Assembly (NCBI GenBank): GCA_045545475.1
Contig: JAZQAZ010000015.1
Coordinates: 32,001 to 96,000 of the forward strand
Direction of reading: 5' to 3'
From: Clostridia bacterium
GTDB taxonomy: Bacteria > Bacillota > Clostridia > CAKSNL01 > HGM11501
Length of the DNA stretch: 64,000 nucleotides
A model generated the notes under the pieces. That model was not told the DNA's origin and made no database searches. It saw only the letters and a program-made list of their open reading frames with translations. Of the stretch, positions 1-16,980 are shown piece after piece (positions within the stretch are counted from its first letter, which is position 1; every line of letters starts with the position of its first letter). Both the position numbers and the translations under genes were made by a program.

Positions 1-1415
1 ATATATACCTTTTCCGCAAAGGGGCCTATCTGGGTATCCAATCCGGAAAGTTCATTAACCTTTTCACCGTTTATAAAAATATCCTCAAAGAAAATGTTCC
101 AGGTCTTGTGTTCCTCGTCCTTACCTGAAATAATTACAGGAGGCTTACCAAGTCCTTCATCCACATAGATATTAATATTTTTCAAAGTTACATCGTGGTT
201 TTTGCCGTAGCGTCCCGTTCCTTCAACTCTCGGGAGAGGATAAATCCAGGCGTGGAAAAGCGGAGGCATATAGCCCGCTTTTCCGGTGTATTCAGCATCA
301 TCGGAGCTTTGATATTTAGGCTCTAAGCAGTTTTTGTCGTATTCAACACGAATGTCCTCATACAAAATGTGGTGAGCATCTGCAAAAACTCTGTTCTGCA
401 TACTCATAGCACCGTGCATATTGTGAATCAAGTCCAAATTTTTATAGTGTATGTTTCTTATTTCAGATGCCTGGGTTATTGCACCAAGCTCCAGCGTTCT
501 TCCCCAGTCGCACCACATAACTGAGTTTTCAACCAGTAGATTTTCCGTTACCTCGTCTTCCCAGTCTTTTCTGCCGTTGGGAACAATGATATCATCAAAG
601 TTTCTGAAGAAGGAATTTTTAACCGTCATATTTTTGCAGTTTATAAAGTCAATTCCGTCTGCATTGTATCGCCACATACCGATATGGCGTATATCGTTTA
701 TTTCAATGTTTTCACAGTGGTAAAATGTATGTGTCCAGCAGGCGGAATCCATAAAGGTAATTCCGTCAATTAAAATATTTTTGCTTTCGTAAATTCTCAT
801 TGCACCGATTGCAAAGTTTCCCTCATCATCCGGGGCAGATTCGGTTTTAGCCGTTCTTTCCTCCCAGGAGCCATCAATTATGCCGTGTCCCACAAAGGCG
901 ATGTTTTCTGCATTTCTTGCAATGAAGTTTCCGTAAAGGCGTGAGCCCTTATCCACATATACCACAGTGTCGGATTTTATTTCCGTCGTTCCTACATGGT
1001 GCTCGCCCTTGCCGTAGTATAAAAGATTTTTCGCATTTTTATATTTTGAATAGTCCTTTTCGGGGACAATGAAAATGTGAAGTGCGTTATGAAAATCGTC
1101 ACATTCCAGGCTGTAGTGTCCTATCGGAAATGTGGCTTTTATTGTTTTTCCCGAAATTTCGGGAGTGATATTTTTTGAAAGAGGGCGAAAAAGCACCTCT
1201 TTAAAAGACAAAGAAGGTGTGATTTCAAGTGTTACCTCCCCCTTTGCTTCAAGCAGAATAAAGCCCGCTTCCTCCGTCTGATCAATGGGCCGCTGATGCC
1301 CCGGCCAAACGGTGTTAAAGGGGATTTTTGATACCCTGCAAAAGTATACAGGAATATCCTTTTCGCCTGACTTTACCTTATATAAATCGGTAAACACACT
1401 ATCACACCTTTTCAT
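1..1415 (-). CDS. GH28-like right-handed beta-helix glycoside hydrolase, runs off the left edge; paralog of 56115..57650
   Basis: Not in the ORF track; translated by hand from ATG 1415 (alternative GTG 1397): ...CRVSKIPFNTVWPGHQRP...HNALHIF...IGMWRYNADGID...RNFDD...WCDWG. These motifs are shared with 56115..57650. No stop before position 1 and no signal peptide. Confidence 0.8.
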   Translation of the reverse strand, partial: MKRCDSVFTDLYKVKSGEKDIPVYFCRVSKIPFNTVWPGHQRPIDQTEEAGFILLEAKGEVTLEITPSLSFKEVLFRPLSKNITPEISGKTIKATFPIGHYSLECDDFHNALHIFIVPEKDYSKYKNAKNLLYYGKGEHHVGTTEIKSDTVVYVDKGSRLYGNFIARNAENIAFVGHGIIDGSWEERTAKTESAPDDEGNFAIGAMRIYESKNILIDGITFMDSACWTHTFYHCENIEINDIRHIGMWRYNADGIDFINCKNMTVKNSFFRNFDDIIVPNGRKDWEDEVTENLLVENSVMWCDWGRTLELGAITQASEIRNIHYKNLDLIHNMHGAMSMQNRVFADAHHILYEDIRVEYDKNCLEPKYQSSDDAEYTGKAGYMPPLFHAWIYPLPRVEGTGRYGKNHDVTLKNINIYVDEGLGKPPVIISGKDEEHKTWNIFFEDIFINGEKVNELSGLDTQIGPFAEKVY

Positions 1416-1428
1416 ATTAATTTTTAAG

Positions 1429-2280
1429 TTAGATCCATTCAAGCCCGGCAACCGATACACTCCCGCCGTTTGGTATTGGCTTATTTTTCCATCCGCAGGT
1501 TGTTATGTAATATTTTCCGTTGTCACAAATAATTTCGGGAGCATGTGCCGTAAGCTTAGTGACAGGAATCGTGCCGCCTTTGCCTCCGTTGTATTCGCCG
1601 AAAAATTCAGGATTTTCCGATGCGAAAACTAATGTATCTGAATATGTGGCATCCGAGCAGTCGGTATAAGTTATAAATAAATAGTAAAGCCCGTCCTTTT
1701 TTACCACAAAAGGAGACTCAAAAGCACCCCAAGCCACTTTAAGCGGTGCATCGTCACCCGAGGTTAATGCATAGCCTGAAAACTCCCAGTTAATCAGGTC
1801 TTCTGATGAAAAGCAGCTTACCGCACCCTTTTTATCCTTTACCCCGACAACATACATAAGATATTTATTTTCAGAAATTTTAATTACAAAATGGTCACGG
1901 TGTGCGCCCATCAAAGGCTCATTGTTAAGATTAACCTTTGTTCCGAACCACTCTGTCATATCAAATGAAACTGCCAAGGATGTGGGTGACGGCCCGTAAA
2001 ACATATAATATATTCCGTCCTTTTCTATGACGGAAGGTGCCCAGGCAAGGGTTCCTTTGTCAATTGAACGGCCCACTTCCCGAAGCTCGCCTTCAAGGCT
2101 TTCGCCCTTTCCGTGAGCAAAATAGCGTTCCGCTCCCGGCGTTCCTTCAAAGCTTGTAATTCCGTATATATGCCACAGCCCGTCGCTGCCCTTTACTATG
2201 GAATGGTCATTCACATAGTTTCCGTGTACTTCTGGCTTAAACAAAACTCGCCATTCACCTGTTATGCAAGGTATTTTCAT
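1429..2280 (-). CDS. Five-bladed beta-propeller glycoside hydrolase (GH32/GH43-like), cytoplasmic
   Basis: VNDHS...WHIYG, WAPSV, HRDHFV and FESPFV correspond to the ND/RD/E catalytic motifs of clan GH-J/GH-F propellers. Confidence 0.75.
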   Translation of the reverse strand: MKIPCITGEWRVLFKPEVHGNYVNDHSIVKGSDGLWHIYGITSFEGTPGAERYFAHGKGESLEGELREVGRSIDKGTLAWAPSVIEKDGIYYMFYGPSPTSLAVSFDMTEWFGTKVNLNNEPLMGAHRDHFVIKISENKYLMYVVGVKDKKGAVSCFSSEDLINWEFSGYALTSGDDAPLKVAWGAFESPFVVKKDGLYYLFITYTDCSDATYSDTLVFASENPEFFGEYNGGKGGTIPVTKLTAHAPEIICDNGKYYITTCGWKNKPIPNGGSVSVAGLEWI

Positions 2281-2415
2281 AATGCAAGTCCCCTTTCTTT
2301 TTTTAGTTTATCATACCGCACATCAAAAAGCAAGGTTATTGCTCATAAACATAATGCCATATCCCGGATTTTCAGTCAACGGCAAATTGTTGTCAATGAC
2401 TTGTAAAATGTTTTG

Positions 2416-3183
2416 TCACTTTGAAAGCATCTTCGCGCTGTCCTTGTCTAAATACAGTTTTGCACTTTCATGCTTTCTTAAAATGCTGGCAGGGCATAAA
2501 ATGCTTATTTCGCCCTCCATTGTATTTTTAACAGCCTCAGCCTTTGTAAAGCAGGGTACTATGCAAAACATATGCGATGCAGCCGTTAAAGCAGGAATTG
2601 TTAATGTCAGGGCAAACTTTGGAACATCGTCTATTTTTTCAAAACAGCCGTCATTTACCTGCTGTTTTCTGCAAACCTCATCAAGGTCCACCTTTTTAAC
2701 CAATGCCTTGTCGTTAAAATCGGCAACGTGGGGGTCGTTAAATGCAATATGGCCGTTTTCCCCTATTCCGAGAACCACTATATCAACGGGATTTTTTAAG
2801 AGCAATTTGCTATAACGCTCAATTTCTTTTTCGGGTTCCGTTGCAGAATAATCAATTAAATTTACCGACTTAAAGGGCTTTTTTGAAAATATTTTTTCCA
2901 TAAGGAAATTTGCAAAGCCCTGGGGTGCACCCTTGGGAAGCTCTATATATTCATCCATATGAAAAGCATTGATTTTTTCCCATTCAATGCTGCAGCTTTC
3001 GCAAAGGTGGTAAAGCACATCATTCTGCGACGGTGCCGCCGCAAATATCATATTTACTTCATCCTTGCTTTCAAGGATTTTTTTGATGCATTTTTCAATA
3101 TCTTTGGCTGCGAAATATCCCATTTCATCACGGGTATCGTAAATTTCCGCAGTTAAATTATCATTTTTCAAACTTCTGATCAT
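2416..3183 (-). CDS. nagB: Glucosamine-6-phosphate deaminase / sugar-phosphate isomerase family
   Basis: FHMDEY, LGIGENGHIAFND, ALTLTIP and CPASILRKH motifs; AAAPSQ replaces the usual GLATGSTP. Confidence 0.75.
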   Translation of the reverse strand: MIRSLKNDNLTAEIYDTRDEMGYFAAKDIEKCIKKILESKDEVNMIFAAAPSQNDVLYHLCESCSIEWEKINAFHMDEYIELPKGAPQGFANFLMEKIFSKKPFKSVNLIDYSATEPEKEIERYSKLLLKNPVDIVVLGIGENGHIAFNDPHVADFNDKALVKKVDLDEVCRKQQVNDGCFEKIDDVPKFALTLTIPALTAASHMFCIVPCFTKAEAVKNTMEGEISILCPASILRKHESAKLYLDKDSAKMLSK

Positions 3184-3197
3184 AGTAAGACCTCTCT

Positions 3198-5066
3198 TTA
3201 TTCAAAATCATACCATTTATCCGGCACAAAAGCTCTTTCCGCTTTGCCTGTGCAAGGTATCATAATTCCGTATCCGTCGTTATCCTCCCTGAAGCTGTCG
3301 TATCTTGTCATATACAAAAGCTCGGGGTTGATGTTTTCATATTCTCTGATTGGCTGATAAACCAAAGATGCGGCATTTTCCTCCCTCGTTTCAAGGTCCG
3401 AGTAGCGGAATGCCATTCTCATAAGCCTTACGTTGTTTCTTTCGCGGGGCGTTTCTGCTGATAACAACGCCTTTTCGTAGCAGTCATACATATACTCCTT
3501 GTCGATATTCTCCATAAGATAAATTCCGCAACGCGAAATCTGCATCTGTCCGTCCATACACTCCTCTGCCTTTCTGATTGCATCGGCGATGTAGGGCGCA
3601 CCCTTTCCGAATATCTTAGTGAAATGCCAAAGGTTATCCTCCATCGAAAGCTCTACGTTATATGCCGTTCTTCCGAAGGTGTAGAAATTGAAAATATGGT
3701 TCCATATATGAAAGCACTCTATCTGGGTTGTAGCACCTATAATTTCATCTTTTATAAACCCCTTCCATATTGCCTGCACCTCGTCAGCCATAGGAAGATA
3801 GCGCTGTCTTTCTGCGTATATGCCCATATAATAATCGTAATAGCTTACCTCGGCTCCCGTCTTTTTCCAGCTAAGGAGATTTTCGTGGAAGTGGGTGCCG
3901 ATTAATGCAGAACCGTCCTTCTTTCCGATGCGCCTTAGTCCGTTTGCCGCCCAGGTTGCCTCCCAGACATCAACATTTGAGCAAAGCTTTATATTTTCGG
4001 GGCACTCCCATATATCCACATAAATCAAAAGGCTTATCTTAATTTCGGGATACACCTTGCCCACTCTTTTTGCAACCTCGTTTACAAAATAGCAGTAGTT
4101 TTCCGTTTTGCTCTTATCCTTGCACAAAGGACAACAGCACTGTGGAGCCGTTCCGTCGTGAGGCGGAAGGCTTAAGCTTACAAGGTCTTCATTGTAGCTT
4201 AACCACGTTATCACATTTTTGCTGAATTCTTCTATTAATTCAGGATTTTGGTAGCAGAAAATCATCTGTCCCATATGGTCAACGGGATGAAATCTCGTAC
4301 CGTCCTCTTCAAGACGGAAAAACTCAGGGTGGGTTTCATAATATTTTTCCGGGAAATATTTGTTTCCGTCGGCAGGCATAAAGATGTCCGATGCGTCGTG
4401 ATGTCCTACCTCCACCCCTATGCCCCTTTTGCTGAGTTCTTCAATTAATCCCGCATCCTTCATTTTTTCATAGACGCCTGCCCAGGTGCTGAAAAGATTG
4501 TATCTGTTTTTTGAAAGGAAATCGAAAAACTCTGTGTTAAGCTTTCTTAAAGGGTTTCCCGCACAGTCGGAATACTGTACGCAGGCACCTCTTTTAATTG
4601 ATGTTGCGCATTTAACTATATGCTCCTTGTTTTCTATTATAAGCTCGTCCATTTCCGGAACAAATTCCCCCGCATCTACGGAGGGACTTGAATAGGCAGA
4701 AAGAGCGCATCCGCAAAAGATTTCAAGAAAATCATATACAGCATAAATCGTTCCGCGGTTTTTATCCCCTTCGCTGCCTGCAATAAGCAAGGTGTTATCA
4801 TCAAGTGTTTTTACCATTGCACCCTCGGGGCCGGGAACAAGCTTATTGAATATATCCACCGAAATATACTCTTCGGCCGCCATATTCCGGGAAGGCCCGC
4901 CTATTATAAAAGATGTATTTTCTTTATTGTGAGTGCCTGTAATATTTACCTCTGCCATAAGCATAAGCTTAAGATATTTACAAAGCTCTTCTGATGCAAA
5001 AATTTCCCTTTTTGTTGCATTTTGAGAAATAACAATATCAACCTTATCGAATTTACATATTTTCAT
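3198..5066 (-). CDS. DUF4838-type putative glycoside hydrolase (GH67/GH20-like N-terminal domain + TIM barrel)
   Basis: FASEELCKYL...RGTIYAVYDFLE N-terminal domain; YYETHPEFF; CCCPLC; YCYFVNEVAK; YYDYY. Confidence 0.65.
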   Translation of the reverse strand: MKICKFDKVDIVISQNATKREIFASEELCKYLKLMLMAEVNITGTHNKENTSFIIGGPSRNMAAEEYISVDIFNKLVPGPEGAMVKTLDDNTLLIAGSEGDKNRGTIYAVYDFLEIFCGCALSAYSSPSVDAGEFVPEMDELIIENKEHIVKCATSIKRGACVQYSDCAGNPLRKLNTEFFDFLSKNRYNLFSTWAGVYEKMKDAGLIEELSKRGIGVEVGHHDASDIFMPADGNKYFPEKYYETHPEFFRLEEDGTRFHPVDHMGQMIFCYQNPELIEEFSKNVITWLSYNEDLVSLSLPPHDGTAPQCCCPLCKDKSKTENYCYFVNEVAKRVGKVYPEIKISLLIYVDIWECPENIKLCSNVDVWEATWAANGLRRIGKKDGSALIGTHFHENLLSWKKTGAEVSYYDYYMGIYAERQRYLPMADEVQAIWKGFIKDEIIGATTQIECFHIWNHIFNFYTFGRTAYNVELSMEDNLWHFTKIFGKGAPYIADAIRKAEECMDGQMQISRCGIYLMENIDKEYMYDCYEKALLSAETPRERNNVRLMRMAFRYSDLETREENAASLVYQPIREYENINPELLYMTRYDSFREDNDGYGIMIPCTGKAERAFVPDKWYDFE

Positions 5067-9487: not shown

Positions 9488-11491
9488 TTATTTTATAACA
9501 TTATCTTCGAATATGGAATTGGCACCCTTTTTAGACACCATTCTTTTTCCTATTATTACATTATTTCTTACAATATTATTATCCGATGTACCGGCTTCCA
9601 CTATCGCCTTTGAACCTTCTGGAATATCAATAGTACAGTTTTCAATGACACAGTCTGTAAGATTTATAATATATATAGCAGGAGTAGAACCCAGACTTTG
9701 TGAGGTTTTAATTGTAAGTCCTTTTACAATAGCTCCGCTGTTATTAACAGCCACTCTGCGGTTTACAATGCCTCCGACTATCTCTTTTGCACTCTTTATA
9801 CTTGTCCCAGCCACTCCATCGTTTATATAGATTTCTGTATTATAAACTTTATCCATCTTACTTATTCCTACAGGGAAAGCACAATTTTTTATAATACATC
9901 CCGAAACCGTGGAATTTGTATAATTACTCTGATAAATCGCTCCTGTTTTTGACTCTGCCCCAGAAAGTCCTACACCATCCATCAAAACATTTTCAAAAAG
10001 TAAATCCTTCGAGGTATTGAAAAGAACAGCATTCTGACAGTTTTTTAAGGTCCCGTCACGCACTATTACTTCTGAAGACCCAATTATTTTTATGGCAGTA
10101 TCTTTTATTTCTTCGCAAAAGAAATTATTGATTAAAATATTTTTATTATTTTGCGAACTGGTTGTATCAACCACAGCATTGACATTTACAACCTTCATAT
10201 TTGATATTGTTACATTTTCTTTCGTGCCTTTGCCGGAAAATCTAACCCCCACATTGCATCCCGCTACACTGTTATTATCTATTAAAACATTAATAATATC
10301 TCCACCTGGTGCGCCTATATTTATTGCATTTCCACGTATATTTTTAATTTCATTATTTCTTATTATAACATTTTTCACTGCCGTACCTTTCACCAGTGAT
10401 TCCACGGCTATCCCGAAATTCCCCTTGCCTTCTATGGTTCCGTCCACAACATTATTTTCAACAATCGCACCGTCGCAGCCGTCTCCTACGGAAATCGCAC
10501 CGCCGGCAGAGCCTGCCCCGGGGCTATTTATTACAATGTTGTCGTGAATATATGCATCTTTGCAAAAAACAAGATCCAAAGCCTCGTCTCCCACATTGTT
10601 TATTTTGCAATTTCTGTATGTTGCTCTCACAGTATACTGTATATCAAAGCCGTGAGTTTCCTCTTTGGTGCCGTTTTTTTCTATAGTCCACGCATGATTA
10701 ACAGGGTCAGTATCATATACTCCCATATCAGAAAATGTGATATCGTGCAAGTATTCGCTTTCGTTTTCTGGCTTTCTTTCAGGTTGTATTCTTACAGCAA
10801 CCCAACTTCCGTTTGTTTCCCAATTTTCAAGATATTTAATTACAGATTTGTCTCCGCCATCACCTAGTACTGTCAATCCTCCTGAACCATTAGGCAGACT
10901 TATATACATACCGCCTTCCAGAATCCCGTATTCACCTTCAGGGAAATACACCGTTGCAGGCAGATTATCTACAGCATATGCGAATGCATTTAAAATCGCT
11001 TCCTTATCGTCAGTTAAGCCATCACCAACAGCCCCAAAATCTTTAACATTAACCATTTGTTCTCTACTGTATATATGTACTTCTTTTTTTGTGTTGTCCC
11101 ACTTTACTATACAATCAAAGGCCTCACTTATAGCTCGTACAGGCACCATCGTTCTCGAATCAATCAGTTTTGCAGGGACATCAAGAACCTTTACCTCTCC
11201 ATTTACTGTAAGCTCCGATGCCTCTATTTTTATAGAAACATTTTTATCTTCTTTTTTAGCGGTTACAGTCTTTGTTTTATCATCCCAAAATACCTCAGCA
11301 CCTAATTTTTCAAAAATTTTACGCATTGGAACCATTGTGCGTCCGTCAATAATTACAGGTTCTACATCAAACTCAAGTTTAGTGTTGTCAATAAAAACTC
11401 CGAGACTCTCGTTCGCGTAAACTGACACCATAGAACCACCCAATAAAAGAAAAATCACAATAAAACATACCATTTTTCTCATTTTATTCAT
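9488..11491 (-). CDS. Secreted protein: signal peptide + copper-amine-oxidase N-terminal (stalk) domain + pectin-lyase-fold beta-helix
   Basis: Start moved to ATG 11491 (GGAGGG RBS, hydrophobic signal peptide). DVEPVIIDGRTMVPMR...VPAKLIDSRTMVPVRAISE is the stalk domain. VNVKDFGAVGDGLTDD...TVYFPEGEY begins the beta-helix. Confidence 0.8.
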   Translation of the reverse strand: MNKMRKMVCFIVIFLLLGGSMVSVYANESLGVFIDNTKLEFDVEPVIIDGRTMVPMRKIFEKLGAEVFWDDKTKTVTAKKEDKNVSIKIEASELTVNGEVKVLDVPAKLIDSRTMVPVRAISEAFDCIVKWDNTKKEVHIYSREQMVNVKDFGAVGDGLTDDKEAILNAFAYAVDNLPATVYFPEGEYGILEGGMYISLPNGSGGLTVLGDGGDKSVIKYLENWETNGSWVAVRIQPERKPENESEYLHDITFSDMGVYDTDPVNHAWTIEKNGTKEETHGFDIQYTVRATYRNCKINNVGDEALDLVFCKDAYIHDNIVINSPGAGSAGGAISVGDGCDGAIVENNVVDGTIEGKGNFGIAVESLVKGTAVKNVIIRNNEIKNIRGNAINIGAPGGDIINVLIDNNSVAGCNVGVRFSGKGTKENVTISNMKVVNVNAVVDTTSSQNNKNILINNFFCEEIKDTAIKIIGSSEVIVRDGTLKNCQNAVLFNTSKDLLFENVLMDGVGLSGAESKTGAIYQSNYTNSTVSGCIIKNCAFPVGISKMDKVYNTEIYINDGVAGTSIKSAKEIVGGIVNRRVAVNNSGAIVKGLTIKTSQSLGSTPAIYIINLTDCVIENCTIDIPEGSKAIVEAGTSDNNIVRNNVIIGKRMVSKKGANSIFEDNVIK

Positions 11492-11562
11492 ACCAAAACC
11501 CTCCTGAAATAAAAAAATGCCCCAACCGAAGTCAGCGCAAAAAAAGGCAAACTCCGATTGTC

Positions 11563-11720
11563 GCCAAACAAATTGAATAACATGGGATATTTTATATATC
11601 GCTGCTATCTGGAGTGTTGCATTTTTAACAATATAAAATAGCAGCATTACAAGAAAAGGGTATAATACTCCCATGAAATAAAATACCCCTATTTCTTGCT
11701 TTTTATTCAATTTGTTTGGC
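11563..11720. repeat. 158-bp element bounded by a perfect 18-bp inverted repeat, with internal hairpins
   Basis: GCCAAACAAATTGAATAA (11563-11580) and TTATTCAATTTGTTTGGC (11703-11720) are exact reverse complements. Confidence 0.9.
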
Positions 11721-11726
11721 AAAAGC

Positions 11727-11755
11727 ATTATATCACACATATTATATTTTTGCAA
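11727..11755 (-). promoter_or_regulatory. Sigma-A promoter for the 9488..11491 gene
   Basis: TTGCAA-17 nt-TATAAT with TG extension; predicted +1 near 11720, the first base of the inverted repeat. Confidence 0.75.
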
Positions 11756-11859
11756 CAAATTTATTTTTATTTCAAACAACTATTGACAAATGAGTAAAAA
11801 AACGTTTAGGGACTTCATCGTGCCGAATAAATCGGCAGAATAATTGAGTAGTATAGCAT

Positions 11860-11899
11860 AAAAAATGATGGCAGACGCTTTTATGTCTACCATCATTTT
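11860..11899 (-). terminator. Intrinsic terminator after module 1
   Basis: AAAATGATGGCAGAC / GTCTACCATCATTTT stem, 3 bp past the stop codon. Confidence 0.75.
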
Positions 11900-11902
11900 C
11901 AT

Positions 11903-14320
11903 TTATTTAGTAATTGTAATTTCCTGAGTCTCTCCGTTCCACTCTACGTTATATCCGAGCTGTTCAGAAATAAATCTTACAGGAATGAAGGTTCGGGAAT
12001 CCTTGATTTTAGGCGGTACGTTAAGAGTATATCTTACTTCCTTACCCTTTGAATCAATGATATAAACGCTTCTGGACATAATCTGCATTTCGATTATTGT
12101 TCCGTCCTTTTCGATTAATATCTGCTGAATATTTCCGTTCCATTCAATTGTTGCGCCCATTTCCTCTAAGAGTCCTCTTAAAGGAATAAGGGTGTAGCCT
12201 GCACCTGCAATGTAAGGAGCAACGTCAATCGTTCTTACAGAATCAACTCCGCCTTTATGGGACTTAATCTCGTTTGAACCGATTTTAAGGATGTAGCTTT
12301 CCTTTTCATCCTCTGCCCTCTGCTCTGCTGAATTGGTGCTTTCATAGAAGGTGATTTCAGCACAGCTTGCTCTTCCGTCATTACCCTGATTGATGTAGAA
12401 ACGGATGAATCCTGCATGTATGGGTTCATCAAACCTTATAACCTGCTCGCCCTTTTTCTTTTCAAAGGTTAAAAGCTCCTTTGCGATTTTGTAATTTTCA
12501 CCATCAACGGAGTAAAGCACGTCAAAATCAAGCCACAAGCCGTGATAGTCATCTGACTGACGAGGAAGCACGTTAATCTGTGCCACATAGTAATTGTCGT
12601 TTAAGTCAATATCTAAAACGTAGGGCCCTTCAACCTTGGTTGTCTGCCATACAGATTGGGGTGAGCCGTCAACCACCGCAGAAACCTTACCTGTATCGGG
12701 CCACTGCAAAGGAGCATCGCACTTTGCTGTCATTCCCTTTTTAGGAATTGCGATAAGGCCGCCTTCTTCGTATGCCGCTGCATAATCCTTCGGCTCAACA
12801 ATTGCCATATTGGGATCATACGGTTTAAGATTAAGCTCGGCACAAGTTCCGTAACCGCCGGCACCGTCCAGAAATTCAAGCTTCAAGGCGTCAAGCTTTA
12901 CGTTGAAGGACCACTCGGAATTCTTAAGTCCCATATCGTTTGCCCATTCACCGCCGCCGATCAAATATTCCTCTCCGCCCAAAATTGCATAGGCGTTATA
13001 TTTGAATATTCTTCCCGACTTTATGTTGTCCTGTCTGGGGGTATAGGTAAAGCCGCCGATTGTAACTGTGCCTGGAAGGGTTATTGTTACATAGAAGGGT
13101 GGGTTGTCCTTTGAAAGAATGGTGGAGCCGGATGCTTTATAGTTTGTGTGCCAGTAGGTGGAGCTGTCACCGTCAATCATTTTCTCGGCTGTGTTGTTTC
13201 CGATGTGGCTTGATGCCTTTATTTTCCATTCGGACTTGTCGGGGATGAAGCCGGGTTCATATTCCTCACGGGGGCCCATAAGTTCAGCCTTTTCCTCGGC
13301 AGACTTGATTTCGTCAATATCTTTCTTCGTCAAAATGTCAATTTCCCCGCAGGTGCCTACTCTTCCCGTTGTCGATCTGAACACAAGGCGGATTCCCGCG
13401 ATTTCCGTTTCCTTCCAAGAAACAACTTCAACAGTTCTGTCACCAATAAAGGTGCCCGATGCAAGCTTTTCACCCTGGGCTGTACCGGAAAGTGCGTATA
13501 CATCATAGTCCTTTATATAACCTGTATCGCTGGTCTGTCTTGGAGTATAACGTATACCTGCAGCCTTAACTCTGGCAGGTAGGTTTATGTCAATTGTAAA
13601 GGGGGCAGGATCTGTTGTGTCAACCTTTCCATCCTTTACAGTGTACTTTGAGTGCCAGTAAGTCACAGGATCGCCGTCTATCATTTTTTCTGCTTTTTCT
13701 GTGTTAAGCTCGCTTGATGCCTTGATTTTCCAGGTGGATTTTTCCGGAACAGTTTCCACCAAAGGAAGCTTTGCCGCATCGTTGGCAGATGCCATTTCCG
13801 CGGGGCTTATAAGGTCAATTTCCGCACAGGTTCCGACACCGCCCGATGCCACCGTACTTGTGAAAATTATTCTTATGCCGGAAAGATTAACGGCATCCCA
13901 GCTGAAAGTTTCGATTGTATCGTCTCCAACAAATGTGCCCTTTGCAAGAAGCTTTCCCTGAGTTTCGCCCGAAAGCTCATAAAATTCAAAGCCCTTTACA
14001 TAGCCCGTGTTGCTGTTCTGTCTCGGAGTATAACGGATACCTGCAACAGTTGCCTCGGAAGGAAGGGTAATGTCTATTATATAGGGAGGCTGAACCTTGT
14101 TTACAGCCTTTCCGTCTTCCGTGTCGTACTTGGAGTGCCAGATAGTATCTGTTTTTCCGTCAATCATCAACTCTGCCTTGCCCCAACCCATTTCCGTGTT
14201 GGCGGTAATTTTCCAGGTGGACTTTTCGGGGATTGGCAAATCTTCTGCACTTATATAAAGTACACTTACAGTTGAAAGCACTAAGATAAGAGAAAGCATT
14301 AAGCTTAAAATCTTTTTCAT
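11903..14320 (-). CDS. Module 1 partner: secreted protein with 4 F5/8C (CBM32/discoidin-like) domains + C-terminal stalk domain
   Basis: Start ATG 14320 (MKKILSL..., GGAGG RBS). Repeats of MIDG..TYWHS...YTPRQ...TCAEI. C-terminal IDVAPYI..TLIPLRGLLE...RTFIPVRFISEQLGYNVEW. Confidence 0.85.
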   Translation of the reverse strand: MKKILSLMLSLILVLSTVSVLYISAEDLPIPEKSTWKITANTEMGWGKAELMIDGKTDTIWHSKYDTEDGKAVNKVQPPYIIDITLPSEATVAGIRYTPRQNSNTGYVKGFEFYELSGETQGKLLAKGTFVGDDTIETFSWDAVNLSGIRIIFTSTVASGGVGTCAEIDLISPAEMASANDAAKLPLVETVPEKSTWKIKASSELNTEKAEKMIDGDPVTYWHSKYTVKDGKVDTTDPAPFTIDINLPARVKAAGIRYTPRQTSDTGYIKDYDVYALSGTAQGEKLASGTFIGDRTVEVVSWKETEIAGIRLVFRSTTGRVGTCGEIDILTKKDIDEIKSAEEKAELMGPREEYEPGFIPDKSEWKIKASSHIGNNTAEKMIDGDSSTYWHTNYKASGSTILSKDNPPFYVTITLPGTVTIGGFTYTPRQDNIKSGRIFKYNAYAILGGEEYLIGGGEWANDMGLKNSEWSFNVKLDALKLEFLDGAGGYGTCAELNLKPYDPNMAIVEPKDYAAAYEEGGLIAIPKKGMTAKCDAPLQWPDTGKVSAVVDGSPQSVWQTTKVEGPYVLDIDLNDNYYVAQINVLPRQSDDYHGLWLDFDVLYSVDGENYKIAKELLTFEKKKGEQVIRFDEPIHAGFIRFYINQGNDGRASCAEITFYESTNSAEQRAEDEKESYILKIGSNEIKSHKGGVDSVRTIDVAPYIAGAGYTLIPLRGLLEEMGATIEWNGNIQQILIEKDGTIIEMQIMSRSVYIIDSKGKEVRYTLNVPPKIKDSRTFIPVRFISEQLGYNVEWNGETQEITITK

Positions 14321-14334
14321 TTTTGTCCCTCCCC

Positions 14335-16980
14335 TTATAAAATTTCCGCAGCCTTTAATACTGCATCCACATTTATTTCTCCGCCGCTTATTGCAAATGT
14401 ATCTCCATTTACATAGGCTTTCCAACCGAACACCTCGGTTAAATAGCTTAAAGGAATGTATCTTAAGCCATCTACTACCTTAACGGGAGCAGAAAGTGCC
14501 ACTACCGCACCGTTCTTTCTTGCTTCCATACTTCCAACGATGGTGTATGACCAGATATGGTCAACAATTTCTATGCCCTTACGGTTATAATTTGAAACAT
14601 ACTGAGCATTATCCTCTGCATAATATTCCGTCTTTGTTTCGCCGTAGCCCATTATATCTTCCACAGCAAGTTCCGGAACGTAAAGTGTTCCGTTTTCCAT
14701 AAAGGCGGTGATTCTTGTATCGGCGTCATAAATATTCATTTTACCGCCCGATACCACCATTTTATTACTTCCAGCCTTAAATACCGCTGTATCATTAAGT
14801 GCCACCCTTGTATCATCATCAAGAGAAACCTGGGCAATTTCGGTGTAAAGATAGTTAAAGCGTCCATTGGGTGCAACGGATCCAAACTCGTAAAATCTTA
14901 ATACATCGCCGTTTTCTTCTGCATTGTCGGCAACCTTGAATTCAAGGTCAATTGCACCGGTTTCGCCTATCATCTCTCTTGTAAGAGCGAATATAACGCT
15001 CTTACCATTTATCTTTACTTCTGCATTTCCAACTGCGTTCCATGTGCCGTTATAGGAAGAAACATTACCGTCACCTGCAATAAGGTAGTCATAACCTTCC
15101 CATCCTGTCGCATAGTTACGGTCGGTATTTAAGTAAATGTGAAGCTTTGATGTATCCGTAACCTTCGCTTCTGCATCTACCTTTATGTAGAGCTTTGCGT
15201 CATCACGTGCCATTTTTGCACCGGTGATTACGTTTACATAGCTTGTTACATAGTGGAAGTTTTCGCCCGTCTTATAGTTGATGAGTCCGTATTCATCACG
15301 TTCTTCGCCGAAGTTATCGTTGATAAATTCCGGGCCAACGTTATCCCACTGGGAAAGGTCACCTGCGATATCTATGGTCTTATCCTCTGTTGCAAGAGGT
15401 GCAGGACGAACACCCTTATATTTTCTTACAAAGTCGCAAAGTAAATTATAATAGTCATCTCTTAAAGGACCTCTGGATGGCTCAAAGTCACGGCTTCCCT
15501 CATCGTCAAAGGAGTCAACAAAGGAGTTATCGTGGCCTGAATACTGAGCCTGTCTTCCCGCAGTCCACTCGTTCCAGCCGTCAACATAGATAAATGCAGG
15601 ATCTTCCCTTAGTGCCTGAATAGCCTCTTCCCTGAAGAAGTAACCCATATTCGTTGCGCCTTCTCTGTAGTCCTCGCCGAAGCCTTCTGTATAGCTTCTT
15701 CCCTTGGTGTAAGGATCGGAGAATACGCAGGTATGACTCCAGCCGTCAACATAGGATTCGTTTACTCCGGTACCCACAACCATAAATTCCGTTCTTCCGT
15801 CTTCTTCGGTGTTCCACTTGGTTAAGGGAGAAGCCTGGAGCCAGTGCCAATAGCGGTCGCCTCCCACATATTCAACGGGCTCACGGGAACCTGACATACG
15901 GAATGTGTAAAATTCAAAAATTTCTCTTATATATGCTGTTTCGTCAAGCTTTTTTGTATCAAGATTGGTAGACCACTTGGAGTTGTTACCAAACATAAGG
16001 GGCTTACCGTCCCACTCATACCAAAGATCTTTATATCTTTCGTTTTCAAAGAAATATGTATGGACATTTACAAGCTGAGTACGTCGCTGGGAATGGTCTA
16101 CATACCAGGAGTTAAGAGCATTAATCTTGGGAACACGGATTCCGTCCGCCTTTGCATCGGCATATGCCTCGCAGAGAAGATTAAGTGTCTGTCCGCCCGA
16201 AGCAGTACCGTTTGACCAGTCAAAGAAGATTACGTCAACGCCTGCATTTGCAAGCATAATGGCGTGGCGGCGGATTACCCAGTAGTCGGACATCATATAG
16301 TAGCCGAACAAGGGCTCGTTCCAGTAGTAGGCTGTTGCACCCTCCGGCCATGCCTCGTGATAGAAATCATCATATGCATCGGGGTGTGCAGCTATAATTT
16401 CCGAGGGAATTCTTGCTGTTGTTATGGGCTTTTCCTCCGATCCCCTGAGCCAGTACATCATACCGACCTGGCGCATTCCCTCTTTAACGGGTCCAACCTC
16501 TTCAAAGTCAGCCACCTTAACGCCTGCGGCACTTGTCGCAACCCAGGTGTCCGAATAGTTATCGATGAGGCAATCATCTGACGGAATGGTGTAGGGGCTT
16601 ACATACTTTTCCTTGGAAAATGTAACGGATTTAATTGCCGCTCTTCCGATATGCGCCGTTACATAAACGTCATGTACTCCTGAAATTTCTCTGATATTTG
16701 AGGAGTATTCCGTTATGCGATTGTCGCAGATTCTTAAAAATGTAATAATATGTCCTCCGTCTGCCTTATCTGCCGTAATTCTCAAGGTTGCTTCGCTGTA
16801 TGAATCAAGTGTAACCTTTACGGACTTTATGTCAGTAAGGTCAACCTTTTCAAAAACAACGCTTTCCCCCTCCTTGATGCTTTTTGAAACATCAAGAACT
16901 GTTTTTGTCCCTTCTGCAAATGACGGTATCATAGATAAAACCATCAGAAGCACAAGAAACAAAGCTGCAAGTTTTTTCAT
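14335..16980 (-). CDS. Module 1 enzyme: signal peptide + CBM6-like + GH99/GH71-like barrel + beta-sandwich + degenerate stalk domain
   Basis: SGVHDVYV (CBM6 end); YYWNEPLFGYY..YWVIRRHAIMLANAGVD; GKPL; GWNEW...EGSRDFEP; YLNTDRNYATGWEGYD; APVKVVDGLRYIPL. Confidence 0.7.
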   Translation of the reverse strand: MKKLAALFLVLLMVLSMIPSFAEGTKTVLDVSKSIKEGESVVFEKVDLTDIKSVKVTLDSYSEATLRITADKADGGHIITFLRICDNRITEYSSNIREISGVHDVYVTAHIGRAAIKSVTFSKEKYVSPYTIPSDDCLIDNYSDTWVATSAAGVKVADFEEVGPVKEGMRQVGMMYWLRGSEEKPITTARIPSEIIAAHPDAYDDFYHEAWPEGATAYYWNEPLFGYYMMSDYWVIRRHAIMLANAGVDVIFFDWSNGTASGGQTLNLLCEAYADAKADGIRVPKINALNSWYVDHSQRRTQLVNVHTYFFENERYKDLWYEWDGKPLMFGNNSKWSTNLDTKKLDETAYIREIFEFYTFRMSGSREPVEYVGGDRYWHWLQASPLTKWNTEEDGRTEFMVVGTGVNESYVDGWSHTCVFSDPYTKGRSYTEGFGEDYREGATNMGYFFREEAIQALREDPAFIYVDGWNEWTAGRQAQYSGHDNSFVDSFDDEGSRDFEPSRGPLRDDYYNLLCDFVRKYKGVRPAPLATEDKTIDIAGDLSQWDNVGPEFINDNFGEERDEYGLINYKTGENFHYVTSYVNVITGAKMARDDAKLYIKVDAEAKVTDTSKLHIYLNTDRNYATGWEGYDYLIAGDGNVSSYNGTWNAVGNAEVKINGKSVIFALTREMIGETGAIDLEFKVADNAEENGDVLRFYEFGSVAPNGRFNYLYTEIAQVSLDDDTRVALNDTAVFKAGSNKMVVSGGKMNIYDADTRITAFMENGTLYVPELAVEDIMGYGETKTEYYAEDNAQYVSNYNRKGIEIVDHIWSYTIVGSMEARKNGAVVALSAPVKVVDGLRYIPLSYLTEVFGWKAYVNGDTFAISGGEINVDAVLKAAEIL

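Follow-up and report, generated by a model that had tools for sequence, protein, structure and literature searches.

Transcriptional riboswitches and T-box leaders of Firmicutes combine a structured 5′ domain with an antiterminator and a terminator that exclude each other, and with an anti-antiterminator pairing. In the CI RNA of phage P4 (seqA/seqC) and in IsrK of Gifsy-1, an internal segment complementary to other parts of the leader governs termination and read-through, and short terminated and long read-through forms are described (PMC4825925, in part). In AbiF/RCd22 and type III toxin-antitoxin loci, a SigA promoter is followed by a structured RNA, an intrinsic terminator and a gene reached by read-through (PMC12373285, in part). 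The C. difficile cwpV switch is of another kind: imperfect 21-bp inverted repeats bound a 195-bp segment that occurs in both orientations, with an orientation-dependent terminator (PMC2784873, in part).

The window analysed here, a 64,000-nucleotide stretch of clostridial DNA, holds a surface-protein gene behind a leader with long inverted repeats. A first-pass annotation had offered two readings of this leader, a cwpV-type invertible switch or a multi-stem cis-regulatory RNA. We propose, with a probability of about 0.75, that it is a member of a ~210-nt 5′ leader RNA family of gut Clostridia, working as a transcription attenuator. Judged from sequence, the structure is well supported and the switch is plausible.

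The perfect 18-bp inverted repeat, with 122 nt between its arms, was as annotated. It is the longest perfect inverted repeat of the window with arms <2 kb apart; when the window was block-shuffled 30 times, the longest reached 12–14 bp (loop ≥20 nt). No second copy of an arm was found in the window at ≤2 mismatches. The promoter TTGCAA-17-TATAAT was also recovered, on the minus strand and with an extended TG. P1, the helix formed by the two arms, starts 7 nt after the −10 box, and the promoter is so placed that transcription would begin approximately where the upstream arm begins (Table 1). A hairpin at the end of the upstream gene probably insulates the promoter. The extent of 158 bp given to the leader had to be revised: the unit runs ~50 nt beyond the right arm, to a terminator-like UUCG hairpin with U7 that had been overlooked.

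Table 1 Features of the leader and its surroundings in the window (all on the minus strand).
Feature	Position	Strand	Details	Basis
Sigma-A-type promoter	11727..11755	-	-35 box 11755-11750, extended TG 11735-11734, -10 box 11732-11727	
Whole structured leader RNA, ~210 nt	11511..11720	-	predicted start to terminator U-run	covariance-model match
P1 5′ arm	11703..11720	-	upstream inverted repeat	inverted-repeat search, covariation
P1 3′ arm	11563..11580	-		inverted-repeat search, covariation
P2 5′ strand	11678..11689	-	family fold; pairs with 11595-11584	inverted-repeat search, family alignment
P2 3′ strand	11584..11595	-		inverted-repeat search, family fold
P3	11658..11672	-	small hairpin, then U-run	family alignment, RNAalifold
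P4 arm	11601..11645	-	carries P5; 11645-11638 with 11608-11601	fold, family alignment
P5 hairpin	11611..11631	-	degenerate in window copy	conservation, complementarity
P5 A-rich loop and 3′ strand	11626-11611	-	predicted anti-antiterminator	
Switch tail	11541..11560	-	11555-11541 complementary to P5 strand	
Antiterminator 5′ strand	11560-11550	-	pairs with 11533-11523	fold, complementarity
Intrinsic terminator	11511..11539	-	UUCG hairpin (one G·G mismatch in window copy) and U7	
Ribosome-binding site	11500..11505	-	AGGAGG	
Hairpin ending upstream gene (11903-14425)	11862..11899	-	putative terminator	inverted-repeat search
Controlled gene	9488..11491	-	667-aa predicted secreted or surface protein	Cu_amine_oxidN1 domain, right-handed beta-helix

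Searches by blastn returned short chance matches only from plasmid records, and from phage records one true homolog, MT835503.1 (83%, E = 1e-6), which matched the stretch just 3′ of the inverted repeat. Its promoter is the same, and it shares interior words and a UUCG terminator with the window; the closing repeat differs in sequence but is again self-complementary, and the leader precedes methyltransferase and HNH nuclease genes. Although deposited as bacteriophage, the MT835503.1 record may come from a host chromosome, since the end with the leader (positions 1–4537) carries a tRNA-Gly, a restriction-modification (R-M) operon and a multi-membrane transporter-like ORF. At least 122 loci in GTDB were found with a pattern drawn from the 3′ block; this block lies outside the inverted repeat, and the pattern fixes 20 bases of the switch helices.

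The whole element was present at 116 of the 122 loci among the matches listed (95 and 21 in two model searches). The others were dropped, either as chance matches without the body (L045, L046, L053, L112 and L122) or as a duplicate (L060, of L059). The covariance model was built from 14 copies, and the copy it matched in the window was itself in this seed. In a non-circular check, the window interior scored 40.4 bits against an HMM whose training set was the half of the copies to which the window did not belong. All 116 loci among the matches listed were labelled Clostridia or clostridial families, mostly gut MAGs, and at least ~107 genomes hold the element (counted by eye from accession prefixes). 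Random pairs of listed copies were ~65% identical, and the listed copy closest to that of the window was 73% identical. Just upstream of P1, a −10-like hexamer was found in 115 of the 118 listed copies with enough flank, accompanied by TG in 99 of the 115 and by a −35 box of at least 4/6 in 95. Partial copies lay near full ones at L029:2761–2850, L062:5413–5600 and L063:8131–8282. A tRNA occurred within 14 of 60 loci scanned among the matches listed, and the linkage is not a rule; in L001 (MT835503.1), L009, L030, L037, L041, L054 and L063 a tRNA gene lay at most ~500 bp upstream of the promoter.

The copies shared one layout: promoter, P1 from about +1, three-way junction, the conserved hairpin P5, 15-nt tail, UUCG terminator and gene. 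P1 and P2 build a trunk, which ends in a three-way junction with the small hairpin P3 and the long P4 arm tipped by P5. Among the matches listed, the 107 model matches had compensatory double changes in 54 of the 59 modelled pairs and 91.2% of cells paired, compared with 39–45% for slid controls, in an alignment that was fitted to the model and counts related sequences, not independent events. None of 500 shuffles reached the observed level of pairing and double changes. P1 was 98.8% paired, with double changes in 11 of 11 pairs, among the matches listed. From a plain MAFFT alignment of the 14 seed copies, RNAalifold recovered P1, P3, P4 and the antiterminator; P2 and P5 were not recovered from this unfitted seed. 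Nearly all positions with ≥90% conservation among the matches listed were in P1, the P5 loop and 3′ strand, the 15-nt tail and the terminator. The paired 5′ end probably also stabilises the RNA.

The 116 homologous loci among the matches listed and their covariation thus strongly support the second of the two original readings, the multi-stem cis-regulatory RNA, for which covariation and Rfam analyses had been proposed as checks. Rfam matched no family to the leader: at the Rfam 15 gathering score the window gave 0 hits (best E ~1 or worse), 20 short homologous loci gave nothing significant, and 19 longer loci gave only tRNA, tmRNA, rRNA and, elsewhere, a ZTP riboswitch. Details of the original structure stood in part. 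The two hairpins drawn inside the repeat both appear in the minimum-energy fold of the window leader, which folds far better than its own shuffles (z = −7.1). The second one is P4, a feature of the family, and hairpin 1 is peculiar to the window copy. The words of the suggested pseudoknot were located at 11675–11669 and 11587–11581. As a family feature, hairpin 1 with the pseudoknot was rejected, P2 and P3 pairing better in 88 of 105 listed copies.

An inverted-repeat-flanked segment between promoter and ORF is also what an inverton has. However, two-fold cross-validated scoring of the interior favoured the forward direction in each of the 118 assembled copies among the matches listed, and flipped copies would have been found, because the search pattern lies outside the repeat. 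On the sense strand, G·U outnumbered A·C by 17:2 in P1, 100:55 in P2, 53:10 in P3, 116:20 in P4 and 217:2 in the terminator, among the matches listed; P5 had no such excess (31:39). The first position outside P1 was G·U in 64 of 106 listed copies. A single sense strand should be asymmetric in this way, and a DNA repeat should not. Flipping the interior had been said to create a terminator; it does bring a U-run behind the flipped hairpin, but this arrangement passed no terminator rule, with 0 sites in one scan and none in the flipped window body in another. Among the matches listed, 3 of 106 flipped bodies had a terminator-like site, compared with 94 of 106 fixed 3′ tails, and the orientation-dependent terminator was rejected. 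As the interior runs one way, even P1 has more G·U than A·C, and the terminator of the flipped interior is not conserved, we regard the leader as a structured RNA and not as a cwpV-type invertible switch.

There is another version of the inverton, flipped by a recombinase and strongly biased to one orientation like cwpV, with the assembled state OFF, the tail being sequestered by the P5 strand, and the flipped state ON. We give it little credence. P1 is 97% Watson-Crick among the matches listed, unusually clean for an RNA stem, and has a recognisable consensus, yet its sequence covaries freely, unlike a protein-binding site, and G·U is in excess over A·C both within it and at the adjoining base. 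The median tail-body duplex weakened on flipping, from −18.5 to −8.7 kcal/mol among the matches listed, although in the window copy it was unchanged (−13.2 and −13.6), and the body folded better unflipped in 97 of 105 listed copies. None of the 118 listed copies was flipped; cwpV is ON in only ~5% of cells (PMC2784873, in part), so consensus assemblies could hide a minority state. For the window, the earlier statement that no recombinase is encoded was confirmed in 43 of 48 ORFs of ≥150 aa, the five excluded ones overlapping longer ORFs on the opposite strand. Surface-protein and R-M genes are typical phase-variable targets. RecV acts in trans; still, no recombinase, reverse transcriptase or NusG paralog was found among the 124 nearest neighbours of the matches listed (one ORF per side).

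For the structured RNA, the arrangement of promoter, structured leader, intrinsic terminator and co-oriented gene agrees with attenuation. By complementarity, the tail has two mutually exclusive partners, which is a complete attenuator layout. The promoter would start the RNA at about the first base of P1. Pairing of the tail with the 5′ arm and loop of the terminator would form an antiterminator, letting the polymerase read into the gene. Pairing of the tail with the P5 loop and 3′ strand would instead sequester it, the terminator would fold, and transcription would stop. We expect that tail capture by the P5 loop takes place during transcription of the terminator, yielding mostly short terminated RNA, and that read-through rises when this capture fails or is blocked.

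The P5 strand and the tail formed at least 13 of 15 pairs in 103 of 106 listed copies, compared with 186 of 2120 shuffled interiors, and the antiterminator had 8–10 of 10 pairs in 105 of 105 listed copies. Folding and complementarity agreed that antiterminator and terminator exclude each other. In partition-function folding, which allows no pseudoknots and thus cannot form the OFF state, the antiterminator was favoured in 71 and the terminator in 34 of 105 listed copies; with the tail blocked, the terminator formed in 104 of 105. Among the matches listed, the terminator had a median energy of −15.0 kcal/mol and the antiterminator one of −15.6; the medians were −18.5 for the duplex of P5 strand and tail and −4.9 for P5. 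Almost no compensatory double changes were seen in the P5-tail helix or in the antiterminator among the matches listed, and variation there was one-sided. Since double changes are few and the search pattern had fixed 20 of these bases, the support for the switch helices is conservation.

For capture of the tail within one molecule, a full 15-bp pseudoknot helix would be topologically hard. Trunk and arm lengths did not compensate each other (rho −0.22, n = 90, among the matches listed); therefore a fixed docking geometry fits poorly, and pairing between two molecules is possible. We lean slightly towards capture within the same molecule, tuned by kinetics or by a protein, and judge this likelier than capture by a second copy of the RNA, which is possible but on balance unlikely. 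A small-molecule aptamer behind the switch is the least likely. The conserved positions are those of P1 and the switch helices, with no conserved unpaired core as in metabolite riboswitches, and the downstream genes form no coherent pathway. A leader peptide was rejected as well. The surface-protein frame is open through the entire window leader (11492–11779), and ORF callers therefore start the gene at 11779; despite this open frame, a ribosome-binding site with ATG occurred in the body of only 2 of 107 listed copies, and no conserved translated uORF was found among them.

The window copy is an outlier of the family. Among 105 listed copies it had the weakest P5-tail duplex (−13.2 kcal/mol) and ranked second from the bottom for the terminator (−9.6, with a G·G mismatch) and third from the bottom for P5, but its antiterminator was ordinary. 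The family fold costs this copy 10 kcal/mol relative to its own best fold, which contains hairpin 1. By these calculated energies, the window copy is probably decayed and leaky ON.

The protein encoded behind the window leader has an N-terminus resembling a signal peptide (judged from the sequence), along with a Cu_amine_oxidN1 domain and a pectate-lyase-like beta-helix. Nine large proteins with a Cu_amine_oxidN1 domain are encoded between 9488 and 43296 of the window; many of them also have F5/8 type C or CBM6 modules, and they sit among AraC regulators and glycan-degrading enzymes. Only one of the nine genes carries the leader; arm, pattern and covariance-model searches found no other copy in the window.

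Across the family, a same-strand ORF started within 130 nt of 100 of 121 listed copies, and 55 of these 100 had a hydrophobic N-terminus or a membrane segment (simple hydropathy). A Pfam family was assigned to 30 of 109 first genes scanned among the matches listed. There were eight DNA methyltransferases, six of them of EcoRI type, five BspA-type LRR proteins, three SLOG/YpsA, three zinc-ribbon and three DUF6809 proteins, and others. In all five listed cases with the next gene scanned, the methyltransferase was followed by GmrSD/HNH. The EcoRI-type methyltransferase operon stood behind the leader in varied chromosomal contexts (L001, L006, L016, L033, L078 and L081). The 101 downstream proteins compared fell into 72 clusters, and neighbours were often housekeeping genes, both among the matches listed. 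No second conserved element stood out at the far end of the genes in the listed loci. From these genes and the predicted switch, the leader probably controls read-through into accessory genes, among them those for surface proteins and DNA methylation.

Different genes have come to stand behind near-identical leaders. In 19 of the 24 listed leader pairs with ≥85% identity, pairs which are not independent, the next 200 bases were at background likeness, and in the alignments inspected the identity broke at the ribosome-binding site or the start codon. This suggests that leader/gene shuffling is a route to put newly gained genes under control. L084 and L085, 856 bp apart on one contig, had identical DUF6809 gene starts and bodies that were 56% identical. 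Their upstream flank resembles a tRNA 3′ end (by eye) and is partly repeated before the second copy, which, as far as the sequence goes, looks like tandem integration at a tRNA site. Copies in tandem, each behind a promoter of its own, were seen at L059:4876–5749, L039:7580–8195, L098:3–491, L064:6237–6721, L044:7987–8572, L086 and L007:7455–8203. In L059 and L039 the spacers were nearly identical and the RNA bodies strongly different, to which MAG assembly artefacts could contribute. In L044 the bodies were 93% identical, and the P1 arms differed by several compensatory changes.

Part of this picture could also be read as a stand-alone small RNA gene acting in trans, with the downstream genes on constant leak-through, like RCd22 upstream of abiF. 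The discrete promoter-to-terminator unit with its paired 5′ end fits this, as do the tandem copies that each have a promoter, some without a gene between them (L039, L059, L098 and L064), and the unrelated downstream genes (72 clusters for 101 proteins, among the matches listed). We consider it improbable: the conserved antiterminator and anti-antiterminator would be left unexplained, and there is no single cognate protein family among the matches listed. Several copies per genome, in tandem or scattered between housekeeping genes, and near-identical leaders at unrelated loci also recall a non-autonomous MITE-like mobile element that is bounded by terminal inverted repeats and places itself between a promoter and its gene. 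Such an element is scarcely credible here. The window has no target-site duplication, none of the 118 listed copies with enough flank was an empty site with the promoter joined to the 3′ block, and promoter, tail and terminator lie outside the inverted repeat and were always present among the matches listed.

With the attenuator as the preferred reading, the family adds a widespread and apparently uncatalogued regulatory RNA of uncultured gut Clostridia with a fully predicted switch. One element links lipoproteins, LRR surface proteins, R-M operons and SLOG proteins. Shared control of such unlike genes suggests either one signal behind all of them or RNA-RNA cross-talk. A further idea, doubtful and put forward tentatively, is that the leader gives accessory genes a portable and self-sensing expression module, in which the P5 of read-through RNA terminates other copies. 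If so, a free P5 hairpin would pair with the nascent tail of any other copy and force termination, and because the pairing sequences are almost invariant, all copies of a genome would be tied into a single RNA-only negative-feedback network. In a cell free of the RNA, an incoming copy would fire a burst of its gene, e.g., a methyltransferase ahead of its nuclease, and recombination at the constant 3′ block would swap the genes behind leaders. The family also calls for caution, as long inverted repeats in leaders that are nominated by inverton searches can be closing stems of an RNA.

The family of attenuator-type leader RNAs is real and apparently new. A literature search, with most subscription journals outside its scope, found no published description of the family, and neither did word searches in the readable supplements of PMC8040213 and PMC10690425. 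The search also covered parts of PMC11892184, bioRxiv 10.64898/2026.10.21.760802, PMC11109978 and PMC8632094. A fragment of the leader may already be an unnamed candidate in the alignments of PMC8040213/PMC10690425, the supplement of PMC11892184 or COMPASS.

With cwpV the leader shares a repeat-bounded segment between a promoter and a surface-protein ORF and control by termination (PMC2784873, in part); unlike in cwpV, its terminator is fixed outside the repeat, it has one orientation, and its repeat behaves as an RNA helix. The promoter, structured RNA, intrinsic terminator and read-through gene are those of AbiF/RCd22 and type III toxin-antitoxin systems (PMC12373285, in part). It differs from these in its conserved antiterminator and in having neither a repeated motif nor a cognate toxin family, no cognate RNase toxin being found directly downstream among the matches listed. 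As in riboswitches and T-box leaders, a structured 5′ domain precedes an exclusive antiterminator and terminator, but the clostridial leader lacks a match in Rfam, a conserved unpaired core outside the switch and a common downstream pathway. P4 CI, a processed RNA, and Gifsy-1 IsrK serve a single prophage operon of enterobacteria (PMC4825925, in part), whereas the clostridial leader is multi-copy and chromosomal, stands before unrelated genes and matches nothing in Rfam. It would nevertheless work most like these two, since it has an internal segment complementary to a downstream segment of the leader, with short terminated and long read-through forms proposed here as well.
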